DNA from: Octopus vulgaris
Taxonomy: Eukaryota
Reading direction: 5' to 3'
Length of the DNA: 64,000 bases
Assembly (NCBI GenBank): GCA_951406725.2
Contig: OX597840.1
Span: 20,336,001-20,400,000 of the forward strand
Position 1 is the stretch's first letter. Each line of letters starts with the position of its first letter. The notes under the pieces are model-generated. The model worked only from the letters and a program-made list of their open reading frames with translations, was not told the DNA's origin and ran no database searches. Positions 10,719 to 60,792 of the stretch are shown in pieces. Made by a program: the position numbers and the translations under genes.

Positions 10719-10763
10719 ATGCTACTGATGAAGTCCAATGAGGTTGAAATGTGCATCTAGTAT
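10719..10763 (+). ncRNA. Type I hammerhead ribozyme-like motif (minimal)
   Basis: ATGCTA-CTGATGA-AGTC(CAATGA)GGTT-GAAAT-GTGC-ATC-TAGTAT. Stem I has 6 bp, the CUGAUGA/GAAA core is intact and the triplet is AUC; stem II is weak (two G-U pairs). Confidence 0.55.
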
Positions 10764-11437
10764 CCTCATTGCAGCTGCTGAATAATATTTATCTGCAACT
10801 GGTATATTACCAGGAATTATCTTTACCCGAATATCATAGTTATTTTTGTCTTTCAAGATGTATCTACATTAAGTATGATACATAGATAGGTATTTTAAGC
10901 TGTTATTGCTTCTGTTGCATAGAACAGATTTTTATTCACCAGGCAGTGGCTGTGTGGTAAGTAGCTTGACTACCACCCACATGGTTCCGGGTTCAGTCCC
11001 ACTGCGTAGCACCTTGGGCGAGTGTCTTCTGCTATAGCCTCGGGCCGACCAAAGCCTTGTGAGTGGATTTGGTAGACGGAAACTGAAAGAAGCCTGTCGT
11101 GTGTTATGTATATATATATATATATATATATATGTATGTGTGTGTGTTTGTGTGTCTGTGTTTGTCCCCCTAGCATTGCTTGACAACCGATGCTGGTGTG
11201 TTTATGTCCCCGTTACTTAGCGGTTCGGCAAAAGAGACCGATAGAATAAGTACTGGGCTTACAAAAAGAATAAGTCCCGGGGTCGAGTTGCTCGATTAAA
11301 GGCGGTGCTCCAGCATGGCCGCAGTCAAATGACTGAAACAAGTAAATGAGTAAAGAGTAAAAGAGGCAGCTAATTGTAATACCAGTGATTTTTTCAGTTG
11401 CTGACCAACGCAAAATTGGAGACTTTCAATTATAATG

Positions 11438-12586
11438 TAGAAGGTGCTATCAAAAAGTTCCCAGACTAGTTCTGTAGTGTGCCAACAGGTGGCAGCACAT
11501 ATCTGATTGTACAGTGAGAGCTAGTAATGACCTTCATGAGGCAGTGTGCCGAGAGACATTGCTGTGTTTACTTTGCAAGTTGTGAAATTTGTGTTTTTGC
11601 AATCACGTGTATCTGTTGAAGTCTGTGATTCTGTCATAGACAGGAATAAAGAAGCCAATGTGAAATTTTGCATTAACCCTTTAGTGTTCAGATTATTCAA
11701 TCAAACACAATGCCTATTGATTCCCATTGATTTGAATTAATCATGCATTGTCTCATATCTTCAAGATCTTGATGGTGTAATTACTTAATGTAGAATAACA
11801 TTGTAGGGTAGGTGTGAGGGCCTGGATCTGGTCAGTTTGAACATAAAACAGATTAAATATTTTGGCCGGATATGGCCAGTTTAAATACTAAAGGGTTAAA
11901 CATGAAAAGTCTGCTACAGAGATATTCAACATGCTTTAGCAAGCTTATGGTGATGAAGCAATAGGTCGGATGCAATATTTTGAGGGGCACAGGTGCTTCA
12001 AAAACGGAAGAACGTCTCTGGAAAGCAATGAGCAATCTGGAAGACCCGCCATGAGCAACAGCCCAAGAAATGAGGTGTTGTGCATTGAAACTTTTTGTCC
12101 CCGGGGGCTGGACTGTCAATTGAGAGAACTACTGTGATATTATGAAGTGTTCCGAGGGAGGACATTTGGTGAAAGTGACTGGATCTGTGGGGTGTGAAGA
12201 ATTAGATTCTTCACAACGACAATGCCACCCCAACCCCACCCATCACTGAGATCTCCTCATTTGTTTGTTTCTCAACAAAAACATGCTATTGCTTCCACAC
12301 CTGCCCTATCCACCTATTCATCAGATTTAGCACCTGCAAACTTCCTTCTCTTCATAAGAGGAAAATGCAGCTCAAAGGTTGCTGTTTTAACACAGTTTTT
12401 GAGATCCTCAACTTGCTTATGGCCAAACGACTTCCAGGCTGGTTTCCAAAACTGGCAGAAATGCTGGGACTGGTGTATTGCTGTGCAAGGGAACTATTTC
12501 GAAGGGGATAATGGTCAAACTCAGGTGAATAAGTTATTTTTTTATTAAGCATAACTAGTCCAGGTACCTTTAGATTCCGCCTTATA
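11438..12586 (+). mobile_element. Internally deleted, decayed mariner transposon
   Basis: TIR-like ends GAAGGTGCTATCAAAAAGTTCCCAGACTAGTT / AACTAGTCCAGGTACCTTTAGATTCCGCCTTA. After removing the MITE it reads ANVKFCIKHEKSATEIFNML*QAYGDEA...FKNGRTSLESNEQSGRP, then ILHNDNA, YSSDLAPANF and QGNYFEGD. Confidence 0.85.
11677..11895. mobile_element. piggyBac-type MITE inserted in the mariner relic
   Basis: TTAA|CCCTTTAGTGTTCA ... TAAATACTAAAGGG|TTAA: TTAA target-site duplication and CCC..GGG TIRs; excision restores the mariner reading frame. Confidence 0.85.
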
Positions 12587-13619
12587 TCAAAGAATATTCT
12601 ATTATTTGTTTTGTGTCCAGCAATTTATCACTTCTGGTGAATCAGCAGAGATTTATATATATATATATATATATATATATATATATATATATATCTACAG
12701 AGTAGATATTTGGTAAAGATTTTTTTGGTCATTAATGACCATGGGAATGGAACTGAGGGGGTCACAGAACTGGTATCACAGACATGTGATTAGAATGTTA
12801 CAGGAAAGAATTGCCAGACAGATTCTTCAAACTAGGCCAACCAGTAGGAGACATAAGGGTAGATTAAGAATCAGATGGTACGGATAATTCCTCTATCACC
12901 AGTTTGGTCATGCTTGGGAAATCTAGCAAGAATGCAAAGGGTTGGTTGCTTTAGATAGAACCCTATGGAGGAGGTGCCTGAGGACTCTAAACCCATGCTC
13001 CTCCCAGGAACAGTGGGTGCAGAAAATGGATAGATGGATGGAGTTCGACCAGTAAATTGCAATGTCTCTCTCTCCCTCTCACTTTTCCTCACTCTTTCCA
13101 CCTCTCTGTCCTTCTATCCTACCCACTCTTCTACTCTTTCCTTCTCTCCCACCCACTCTCTCTCTGTCTCTCTCTCTCTCTGTATGTGTATATTATGTGC
13201 ACATACATCTGTGTGTGAGTCTGTTCCCCTCCAGTACCAAAAAGTACTGTTCCCAAAAGAGACCGAATATCAAACCACTCATTCCAAATGCTCTCATTCT
13301 GCAATTCTCTGATGCCTTCATTGGAAGTGTCCCAACCAGCAAGAATAAACAGAATGATAAGAAAAAAAACAGAACAACAATAAAGAACTCAAAGACTTTA
13401 AATCAAAATACATTTTTTTTAGATATCTTTATTGTAATTTTTTTAAAATGTGTATATATTCGATAATTTTCTTTAACTTGATTTCATATTGTGTGGAAGG
13501 AAAATATAATAGATAACTATATAGAATACAATGTAACAATATATACACACACACACACAGACACACATGCATTATATATATGTATATGAGTATATATATG
13601 TATGTATATATACATACGT

Positions 13620-13925
13620 GGAAGTGCAATGGCCCAGTGGTTAGGGCAGCGGACTCGCGGTTGTAGAATTGCGGTTTCGATTCCCAGACTGGGCGTTGTG
13701 AGTGTTTATTGAGTGAAAACACCTAAAGCTGCATGGAGCCCCGGCAGGGGGTAGTGGCGATCCCTGCTGTACTCTTTCGCCACAACTTTCTCTCTTTCTT
13801 CTGTTGGCCTGCTCGCTTAGCCAGCGAGGTGGCGTCATTTGAAGGCTAAAACAATGCAAAGCGCATTGTGACCAGCGATGTGTAGCAACATCTGATAGCC
13901 TGGGCGGTCACGGTAGTCACGGTGG
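13620..13925 (+). mobile_element. SINE family D (tRNA-derived head, RTE-like tail)
   Basis: TGGCCCAGTGGTTAGGGCAGCGG (A box), GGTTTCGATTCCC (B box), tail GCGCATTGTGACCAGCGATGTGTAGCAACATCTGATAGCCTGG..TCACGGT; second copy at 25315-25625(-). Confidence 0.8.
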
Positions 13926-14549
13926 ATATATATACATACATATATGTACATATACACACATTATATATATATATATATAGACACAAACATACTCACATAT
14001 GTGTATATATAATTCACTTCATTTATATAACAAAAATATAATATAATAGAACAATATTTGTAGTGCAAACAGGGGGAATATTTTAAGTTTATATACATAC
14101 ATATATAAATATATATGTGTATAAATAAGTGCATATATATGTGTGTGTGTGTGTGTGTGTGTGTATATATACAAATATATACACATGCGGGATGACCAAA
14201 AACCAATTACTGTAACGATTTTGTTTTTTTCAAATGAATAAATAATAGATTTGAAACAAGAAAATTCAGGCAACTCATCTTAAAATAATGTAGAACATAT
14301 AAATAAATAAATAAATAAATAAATAAATAAAAAAGAGGAAAATGTAAATAAAATTATGATAATTCATGAATACATATAATATTCAAAAAGTAAATATATA
14401 TGAACATGATAAGATAAAAGATTTTCATGAAAATTAAGATTGCAACAGATTCCATCCTCTACATGTGTGTGTGTAGACTATATATATATGTATGTATACA
14501 TTGTGTATATATATATATATTAGAAGGTTTGGAGATGATGTACAGGTAT

Positions 14550-59445: not shown

Positions 59446-59612
59446 CGTGCCCTCAGCACGGAGGCCAGTCATTGCGGTACTGGCTACGGTCACGTTCGGA
59501 TGGTTTTCTTATGTGCCACCGGCACTGGTACCACAAGGATACAAATTCCATTGATGTTCATCTATTTTGATTTGTATATATATATATATATATATGTGTG
59601 TGTGTGTGTGTG

Positions 59613-59860
59613 TGGAGGCACGTGGTTTAGTGGTTAGGGTGTCAGCATCATGATCGTATGGTTGTGGTTTCGATTCCTGGACCGGGCAATGTATTGTGTT
59701 TTTGAGCAAAACACTTCATTTCACGTTGCTCCAGTCCTCTCAGCTGGCAAGAATGAGTAACGCTGCGATGGACTGGCGTCCCGTCCAGCTTGGGAACACA
59801 TACGCCATAGAAACCGGGAAAACTGGGCCCATGAGCCTGGCTAGGCTTTAAAATGGTGCA
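59613..59860 (+). mobile_element. tRNA-derived SINE with V-domain-like block
   Basis: A and B boxes (TGGTTTAGTGGTTAGG, GGTTTCGATTCC), then GCTGCGATGGACTGGCGTCCCGTCCAG, with a tail shared with 1135-1432. Confidence 0.75.
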
Positions 59861-59929
59861 TTTATTTATTATTATTACTATTATTATTATTATTATTAAT
59901 ATTATTATTGTTATTATCATTATTATTAT

Positions 59930-60385
59930 TGAGTGAGCGAGCAGAGCATGCCATCAAAGTGACACTAGGGTAAAATATACAAAGCCCAATATACCCATCA
60001 TGACTACCCGTCTGATAAGGGTACACCAGGCACATGCATCACAACCATATGTGCGCGGCATGGTGATCTCATATCAAGATAAACAGCACATGACCTTGCG
60101 GGTGGGGCCCAGTTAGAATTTTCTTCAGGTTGAGTAGCCCATCCCGCTCAAACGGTCCCTGAATAAGGGTTGTTTAAGGATGTTGAAAGAACCAACCATG
60201 TTTCCAGAGGTGAATTATCCAAACCCCAAAGAATCCCTCTCAACACATGGCTATGATGCACCCCCACTACTTCTGCTGGGGATCAGAGATGCACATATCG
60301 TCAGCCACTAAGGGACATGCTCAACTGGTTAAGGTCAAACAACTGACAAGCAAATCTGTGGTATTGAGCAGAATATTTGCTGTAT
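59930..60385 (-). mobile_element. Second copy of the (AAT)n-associated repeat
   Basis: Reverse complement overlaps 24165-24515; (ATT)n on both sides. Confidence 0.65.
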
Positions 60386-60442
60386 TATTATTATTATTAT
60401 ATATATATATGTGTGTGTGTGTGTGTGTGTGTGTGTGTGTGT

Positions 60443-60792
60443 AAACAATTGCAGCGTGGAAGGTGTTTGTAAGCCATTTAAGAAACACACAAAAGCTGTT
60501 TGATTCACTTCAACATTTAAGTTTAATTTGTCAAAATATTTTCGTCGCTTTAAGACCGCGACCTCTACACTGACAAAAATCTGTGTTGCATGGATTTTTG
60601 TCAGTGAAGAGGTCGCGGTCTTAAAGCGACGAAAATATTTTGACAAATTAAACTTAAATGTTGAAGTGAATCAAACGGCTTTTGTGTGTTTCTTAAATGG
60701 CTTACAAACCACCTTCCACGCTGCAATTGTTTTCGTTTCAGCACACAATCTCAGATCAAATCACTTGCTATGCAGGTACATCTCTGTAATAA
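60443..60792 (+). mobile_element. Near-perfect palindrome (~139-bp arms) between TG and TA tracts, with a variant hammerhead motif (Penelope-like)
   Basis: Arms 60443-60581 / 60593-60732. 60597-60647 reads TTTGTCA-GTGAAGA-G-GTCGC(GGTCTTAAA)GCGAC-GAAA-ATAT-TT-TGACAAA. Confidence 0.7.

Follow-up and report, generated by a model that had tools for sequence, protein, structure and literature searches.

Minimal type I hammerhead ribozymes have been described in the pseudo-long terminal repeats (pseudo-LTRs) of Penelope-like elements (PLEs) (Cervera and de la Pena 2014, PMC4209133). About 9,000 hammerheads were reported in Xenopus tropicalis (PMC4209133) and about 5,000 in mussel; for the axolotl the figure in a section title is as high as 120,000 (PMC7229834). 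General traits of PLEs include 5'-truncation, an adjacent inverted copy, a one-sided tail of 30-40 bp and a bias for (TA)n (PMC8557442, Craig 2021); hammerhead function in the endonuclease-containing (EN+) PLEs is stated there to be unclear. In vitro, AT-rich DNA is cut by a PLE protein, which also extends both strands; the tail is situated between two start sites of the reverse transcriptase (RT), and the main template is RNA that has not been cleaved (PMC11167929, Frangieh 2024). In the same study hammerhead cleavage required the PLE protein and was dispensable for insertion. In this work we focused on a stretch of 64,000 nucleotides of Octopus vulgaris DNA (contig OX597840.1, positions 20,336,001 to 20,400,000; G000:C27:20336001-20400000 within a 2.80-Gb assembly of 227 contigs), hereafter the window, in which several hammerhead-bearing elements had been proposed from the sequence. 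We identified seven elements, E1 to E7. Very probably they are 3'-end fragments (pseudo-LTRs) of unrelated repeat families with predicted minimal type I hammerheads; three of these families are tied to PLE RT/endonuclease genes, and proteins of this kind are likely to have mobilised the others. This judgement includes the insertion mechanism proposed below.

The motifs share with those of PMC4209133 a short palindromic helix III, a long helix II and, in E6, an unpaired base 9.1. In both cases many dissimilar families occur per genome, mostly as single truncated copies, with opposite-strand pairs 100-700 bp apart, and the U3-A8 variant is present (about 1,300 hits in Schistosoma in that paper). 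They differ in number, 30,000-60,000 being estimated here against 2,000-9,000 there, and the text consulted there mentions neither a G3-C8 family nor a cephalopod. Natural U3-A8 cores were also described by Perreault (2011, PMC3088659), including the U10.1.U11.1 combination found in E7. Non-LTR retrozymes (PMC7229834; bioRxiv 10.64898/2026.07.22.740005, Li, Clavereau and Pollet) are likewise short, non-coding and PLE-related and carry a type I hammerhead, and their tandem arrays (PMC7229834) have a counterpart in one 30-unit array of E6. In contrast, the copies in the window occur as monomers or as foldbacks joined head to head, have fixed ends and tails, are not permuted and contain a minimal rather than a canonical motif. 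The tertiary pair exchanged in E6 is identical to that of the engineered C3G/G8C hammerheads (PMC11167929; PMC8495972; PMC3884650), a double mutation which partly restores cleavage, including that of a PLE hammerhead (PMC11167929), whereas the E6 family, whose ribozyme is a predicted one, has G3-C8 as its usual state, in thousands of copies across the genome.

Earlier publications cover the hammerheads of PLEs and how abundant they are, as well as opposite-strand pairs, U3-A8 cores and non-autonomous derivatives. In the form first proposed, the finding is largely PLE biology that was already known, seen here in a window that is unusually rich in it. New here are the G3-C8 family and a clean one-tail rule for the foldbacks. 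A natural G3-C8 core was not found in the literature searched (supplements and most subscription papers lay outside the search), which returned only engineered variants; a text query of PMC11014351 did not return one either. The hammerhead lists and figures of PMC8557442 (file S2), PMC4209133 (figs S2-S5) and PMC3088659 (fig S6) could contain such a core.

Hammerhead motifs, their families and PLE genes

The hammerhead-like motifs of the window are real. A strict descriptor, consisting of a CUGANGA core with pairing in stems I and II and a single pair in stem III, returned three motifs (E1 at 10725, E3 at 33919 and E5 at 36841 on the minus strand), whereas 150 block-wise dinucleotide shuffles averaged 0.02 and never reached three. 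With any base allowed at positions 3 and 8 and a palindromic stem III required, seven motifs were obtained against 0.6 in shuffles, E7 (25806, minus) being added. The looser pattern of the original prediction gave 6 against 1.35 or 4 against 0.49, some of these being chance hits. All seven motifs of that prediction lie where it had placed them, in six elements, and a seventh element, E7 (25768-25811, minus), had been overlooked. Rfam at E<=1 gave 145 matches in the window, with no hammerhead among them. The elements had been described as mutually dissimilar, and indeed no pair among the seven matches at E<=1e-4; sequence alignment of six motifs gave no informative result. Inverted arms, predicted for five elements, were confirmed in E2, E3, E4, E5 and E6 and were absent from E1 and E7. 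The base composition of the window is 39% G+C, and (TA)n, (TG)n and copies of a short interspersed element (SINE) are dense.

In a genome sample of 80 evenly placed 10-kb stretches (800 kb), the strict descriptor returned nine C3-G8 motifs against 0.05 in 20 shuffles, and a looser descriptor 37 against 10.7, with 13 C-G and five U-A cores (one doubtful). Eight G3/A8 hits of the looser scan were rejected: seven came from one low-complexity tandem repeat and one was a single hit. The proposed density of about one motif per 10 kb holds in this window and is a local feature, the sample having one per 47-89 kb, 3-6 times fewer. The genome-wide estimate ranges from about 31,000 (14,000-60,000) to 60,000 (35,000-95,000) motifs; no E6, E2 or E4 copy landed in the sample. 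The very large ribozyme reservoir that had been envisaged is large, but it is precedented, and the motif is predicted not to form in the foldbacks folded (see below). Tens of thousands of motifs are left unannotated by Rfam here; their class is known and most copies are probably inert. Eight of the nine strict sample motifs (in 8 elements) have a microsatellite within 250 nt downstream, against a background of 27%, and an inverted copy is present at five of the nine.

First-look candidates in DNA searches numbered 1622 for E3, 1379 for E6, 1149 for E4, 1493 for E2, 1740 for E5 and 2096 for E7, which are not copy numbers; 40 were scored per family, and the copies fetched are the best matches, biased toward likeness to the window copy. 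Among these, CUGAUGA (C3-G8) occurs in 30/30 E3 copies, U3-A8 in 32/32 E4 and 14/15 E7 copies, G3-C8 in 59 of the 64 E6 copies, C3-G8 in 19 of 27 E5 copies (several others being mis-registered pattern hits) and U3.G8 in 10 of 17 E2 copies. All seven families have a palindrome between A15.1 and U16.1, with G-U allowed in E1 and E3: UGUGCA in E1, GCGC in E2, CAUGUG or CAUAUG in E3, CUAG in E4, CGUACG in E5, AUAU in E6 and CCGG in E7. This trait, outside the pattern first searched, is the dimer signature of PLE minimal hammerheads described in PMC4209133.

The 3-8 core pair is C-G in E1, E3 and E5, U-A in E4 and E7 and G-C in the E6 family; pairing fails in the window's own E6 copy (G.G), and the E2 family has only U.G. 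The pair covaries between families, the main point, which the loose pattern had masked. That it is kept as C-G, U-A or G-C according to the family suggests that the active-site fold is under selection in the source elements. Stems I and II are in good register in E3, E5, E6 and E7. One extra U before GAAA puts stem II of E4 out of register, the stems of E1 are decayed, and E2 has C.C at 10.1-11.1 and a stem I of about 2 bp.

In the E2, E3 and E4 families longer copies carry a colinear open reading frame (ORF) with RT and GIY-YIG domains upstream. About 10 of 18 long E3 loci share one upstream ORF at 85-100% protein identity (92-100% to P0001), which ends near -260 to -450, with RT out to -2570, and is variously cut and sometimes inverted. 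It contains WK..DKT and a CxxC before a conserved E and has no CCHH-type pattern, as in Hydra-clade EN+ PLEs (PMC8557442). Pfam gave a weak RVT_1 hit on its RT (E 0.0028) and no hit on the endonuclease part. Both domains were hit by Pfam only in P0002, the ORF of a different, neighbouring element: an uninterrupted 613-aa RT and GIY-YIG frame of a Neptune-like PLE (L038:5342-7180, minus) near an E3 copy. P0002 was rejected as the E3 family's own ORF, with only 27 bp in common, and served solely as a query. Upstream of E4 cores a Neptune-like ORF ends near -700 at four separate sites (L077/L244, L078/L245, L096 and L240), and upstream of E2 cores one ends at -1340 or -1570 in 2 of 25 oriented copies (L235 and L239). 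The E2 and E4 ORFs have a CX4CX2C linker followed by a C-terminal GIY-YIG region, as do Neptune-clade EN+ PLEs on the basis of motifs (PMC8557442). The inverted 5'-truncated copy, the one-sided tail and the (TA)n bias are also those of EN+ PLEs, but the tails here are about 30 to 150 nt long against 30-40 reported (PMC8557442), and the ORF copies examined for E2-E4 are broken.

The original prediction of PLE-derived, hammerhead-bearing, microsatellite-associated elements is supported by these ORF links together with the motif excess and the microsatellite enrichment. Its view that all of them are small, non-autonomous and retrozyme-like did not stand, given the colinear ORFs of the E2, E3 and E4 families; E5 and E6 alone act as short units with a fixed 5' end. 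A link to ORF-bearing PLEs was obtained for E2, E3 and E4 and not for E1, E5, E6 or E7.

E3 (33822-34199, plus) consists of the folded-back 3' end of a PLE family that is young and Hydra-like. The foldback spans 33822-34050, with the inverted arm at 33826-33903, a tail at 34051-34199 and (TA)n on both sides; the canonical core CUGAUGA lies at 33919-33925, with the predicted cut after 33990. E4 (34752-36481, plus) is a truncated Neptune-like PLE split by two SINE copies. Its inverted 3'-end copy (34752-34865) pairs with 36320-36441 (122 bp) and contains a second core copy at 34859 (minus). The forward end (36107-36441) carries the core UUGAUAA (U3-A8) at 36326-36332 and is followed by a tail at 36442-36481, and an ORF remnant is present at 35397-35636 (E 1e-5). 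E2 (14523-14779, plus) lies in (TA)n and consists of the folded-back 3' end of a PLE family of Neptune-like type, with an inverted-arm span of 14550-14779 and the tail on the left arm. Its core UUGAAGA (14639-14645) is degenerate, with U3.G8, a C10.1.C11.1 mismatch and a weak stem I. The stem I first proposed (AAATT/AATTT) belongs only to the inversion junction of the window copy, the family, with its palindrome A-GCGC-U, having about 2 bp at most. In many E2 copies (e.g. L141, L232, L236) the break or inversion coincides with the 5' edge of the core, a hotspot of junctions that was not observed in E3.

E5 (36595-37401, minus) is an AT-rich element of about 700 nt (37292-36595) with a 5' end common to many copies: at least 14 of 29 loci end at one point, 37292, where the inverted arm of the window copy starts. 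Its arms lie at 36595-36703 and 37293-37401 (109 bp), the latter being the inverted one; the core is CUGAAGA (36841-36835), and the family palindrome A-CGUACG-U. E7 (25680-25990, minus; 5' limit approximate) is a PLE-type end running into (TA)n, in the window copy of which no inverted arm was found. Its motif (25811-25768) has the core UUGACAA (U3-A8), U10.1.U11.1, the palindrome A-CCGG-U and a stem I CACUU/AAGUG. E1 (10719-10763, plus) is a decayed type I hammerhead-like motif in an old low-copy repeat, with CUGAUGA at 10725-10731, GAAA at 10746-10749, the palindrome A-UGUGCA-U and the predicted cut after 10757. A search with this motif gave nine matches including itself, the remaining eight at 72-82%; E1 has no inverted arm, and no ORF link was found in the nine loci.

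The E6 family and its G3-C8 core

E6 (60443-60792, plus) is a near-perfect foldback of a 205-nt element, with an inverted-arm span of 60443-60732. The left arm starts at 60443, the forward unit occupies approximately 60588-60732, and the tail 60733-60792. The window core at 60604-60610 is GUGAAGA (G3-G8), with G8 on both arms; this sequence, first taken as the motif, is a mutant of the family core GUGAACA (G3-C8). A 41-mer containing GUGAACA has 501 exact matches in the genome. Exact matches to a 21-mer comprised 5,645 with G3-C8 (92%), 330 in which G3 is combined with a base other than C at 8, and 169 that do not have G at 3; reversed controls gave none. C3-G8 was absent among the first 100 listed of these 169; of the 330, the first 100 listed had G3-G8 in about 4 cases out of 10. 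Public contigs from eight runs under four organism labels show C at window position 60609 at 96-100% of depth, with no alternative letter listed at position 3.

The first 30 of the 501 matches, less an array locus and two second arms, gave a set of 27 loci. The 5' start lies within unit positions 1-20 in all 27, and the 3' ends fall near 150 or near 205, with one at 89. An inverted arm is present in 19 loci, the remaining eight being monomers, and in 19/19 foldbacks the tail is on exactly one arm. Inserted copies retain the sequence 5' of the predicted cut. Of 13 monomers, 3 are flanked by duplications of 8-13 bp other than (TA)n, whereas mismatched pairs gave 1 in 156 (p 0.0014). The array, in 1 of the 30 first-listed matches (L230, G000:C2:17908105-17912963), consists of 30 head-to-tail units, each about 166 bp long and with GUGAACA, and has an inverted arm with a tail in front of it; the array is a natural substrate for a dimer cleavage test.

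Searches for an E6 partner gave negative results. Thirty 5'-complete copies share no upstream sequence beyond the foldback arms, the 100 listed of 111 matches showed no repeated continuation past the tail (for continuations with C/G), the fetched loci contained no diverged relative, and no colinear ORF was found in about 90 loci. A reading frame through the 3' part of E6 was considered and is not supported.

E6 keeps a stem I of 7-8 bp, the unpaired base 9.1, G10.1-C11.1, GAAA and the palindromic stem III, and its fold is more stable than those of shuffled sequences (z -3.1 and -2.3). It is likely to be the natural form of a 3-8 swap otherwise reported from laboratory mutants, with cutting as a prediction from its sequence, and its natural G3-C8/G3-G8 pair lends itself to an activity test. 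A more extended picture is possible, although on balance we lean against it: E6 would be a SINE-like 205-nt PLE parasite whose natural G3-C8 hammerhead is active and fixed in at least four organisms with different labels; the PLE families of this genome would sample three Watson-Crick 3-8 states; the one-tail rule would record two-ended priming by a dimer of the PLE protein; and the hairpins would be a major source of edited cephalopod long double-stranded RNA (dsRNA).

In the public contigs, A>G at window position 60695 reached 15-23% of depth in X1, X3, X9 and X10 (guessed RNA) and at most 0.2% in X4, X15, X16 and X17, X4 also being guessed RNA; A>G is likewise listed at 60675 and 60629. G occurs at 60695 in 3 of 152 genomic E6 copies, and some differences other than A>G are also enriched in those contigs, which have no matched DNA. 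The pattern looks like A-to-I editing of hairpins and is a lead only; hyper-editing of long dsRNA in octopus is published (PMC5625713).

Formation of the foldbacks and alternative explanations

We propose that the PLE endonuclease would cut both strands of AT-rich or (TA)n DNA, and that each target 3' end would prime reverse transcription on uncleaved element RNA. One cDNA would start at the outer and the other at the inner RT start site, and the two, joined head to head, would give a foldback with a single tail. The hammerheads may work as dimers through the palindromic stem III in a tandem precursor RNA, probably aided by protein. In E6 the fixed 5' end of the RNA would let both cDNAs reach the end, yielding near-perfect palindromes, and most inserted copies would be inert. 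This mechanism fits the data because the junctions vary (16 different ones in 19 E3 rows), each foldback has one tail and the sequence 5' of the predicted cut is kept; tails are optional in E2-E5. Element ends are not piled up at the predicted cleavage site, only 1 of 19 E3 rows and 1 of 19 inverted E6 arms lying near it. When whole foldbacks were folded, the probabilities of stems I and II fell from 0.32/0.96 (E3) and 0.94/0.99 (E6) to 0.0, so that transcription of these copies is expected to yield long hairpins and not ribozymes. The foldback form, singled out for follow-up in the original prediction, is already a published PLE insertion structure (PMC8557442); with the one-tail rule, the inverted PLE insertions, hitherto unexplained, could be tested directly in the in vitro system that already exists.

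Several observations weigh against a PLE origin with hammerheads under selection. No autonomous partner was found for E1, E5, E6 or E7 (nine E1, 30 E5, about 90 E6 and a few E7 loci, the E5 search covering 1.5-kb flanks), and the PLE dependence of these four is for that reason suggested by structure alone. The clade names are taken from motifs, not from a tree. In the genome sample only C3-G8 exceeds the shuffles under the strict descriptor, U-A and G-C being at 0; U-A appears only under the looser one and G-C under neither. G3-C8 is confined to one family and may be a single fixed event. Predicted-dead E6 variants are probably copied, because both window arms carry G8 and G3-G8 makes up so much of the listed non-C8 matches. 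For E1, E2 and E4 the minimum-energy folds do not surpass those of shuffled sequences. Finally, catalysis seems not to be needed for element spread, since the E2 family is abundant by its first-look candidates despite a degenerate core and stem II of E4 is out of register.

Alternatively, the motifs in E2, E6 and perhaps E4 would derive from hammerheads but no longer cut, riding along within the RNA bound by the PLE protein, and G3-C8 would be a chance pair of changes that became fixed. We consider this rather unlikely, and it concerns activity and is compatible with a PLE origin. It agrees with the unaffected insertion of catalytic mutants in an anole PLE assay (PMC11167929), with the cleavage in vitro of only 1 of 9 Xenopus retrozyme dimers (bioRxiv 10.64898/2026.07.22.740005), with the spread of E2 and with the E6 copies bearing G3-G8. 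However, both changes in E6 restore a Watson-Crick pair at a known tertiary pair, the rest of its hammerhead and its better-than-shuffled fold are kept as described above, and U3-A8 is used by two independent families.

It is improbable that E5 and E6 are non-LTR retrozymes proper, with arrays transcribed, cut by the hammerhead to monomers, closed into circles and then copied by RT. The E6 unit is short, one array of it exists and the copies seen contain no ORF, and animal retrozymes are tandem units of 150-400 bp and non-autonomous PLE derivatives (PMC7229834; bioRxiv 10.64898/2026.07.22.740005). Dispersed E6, however, is not circularly permuted: it has the common start and two fixed end points, none of the 27 loci starts at the predicted cut after position 60, and it has a tail missing from the array unit and lacks the array's linker. 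Moreover, a single first-listed match falls in an array, the motifs are of the minimal PLE type, and no window copy is a head-to-tail tandem.

That the foldbacks are DNA transposons of the miniature inverted-repeat transposable element (MITE) type inserted in TA, the hammerhead likeness being a by-product of AT-rich hairpins, is hardly credible: E6 and E2 do resemble near-perfect 250-350 bp palindromes flanked by TA in thousands of copies, but this is already contradicted by the one-sided tails of the asymmetric ends and by the RT/GIY-YIG ORFs joined to three families, besides the monomeric E6 loci, the varying central junctions, duplications of variable length (8-13 bp) and strict motif counts about 100-fold above shuffles. 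Ends with the same terminal repeat and a fixed-length duplication were looked for and not found, in line with the original prediction.

Other features of the window

The SINE is about 420 bp long, contains an internal (TA)n(TG)n tract and has more than 10 copies in the window in both orientations, at 10940-11365, 34969-35388, 35718-36101, 52329-52719, 60893-61321 and other positions; two of them interrupt E4. The inverted arm of E5 is adjoined by an element at 37392-38101 that starts with TC, contains internal tandem repeats of about 120 bp and ends in a GC hairpin followed by CTAG, a layout which we take to be that of a non-autonomous Helitron. Two local palindromes, at 56664-57226 (594 bp, 76%), composed of SINE parts, and at 40570-40763 (202 bp, 74%), gave no hammerhead hit. 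An alpha/beta hydrolase exon, presumably ABHD4/5-like, lies at 27940-28524 on the minus strand (Pfam Abhydrolase_1, E 1.7e-22). Two tRNA genes with good scores were found, tRNA-Lys(CTT) at 6382-6454 (minus) and tRNA-Thr(AGT) at 8870-8943 (plus).

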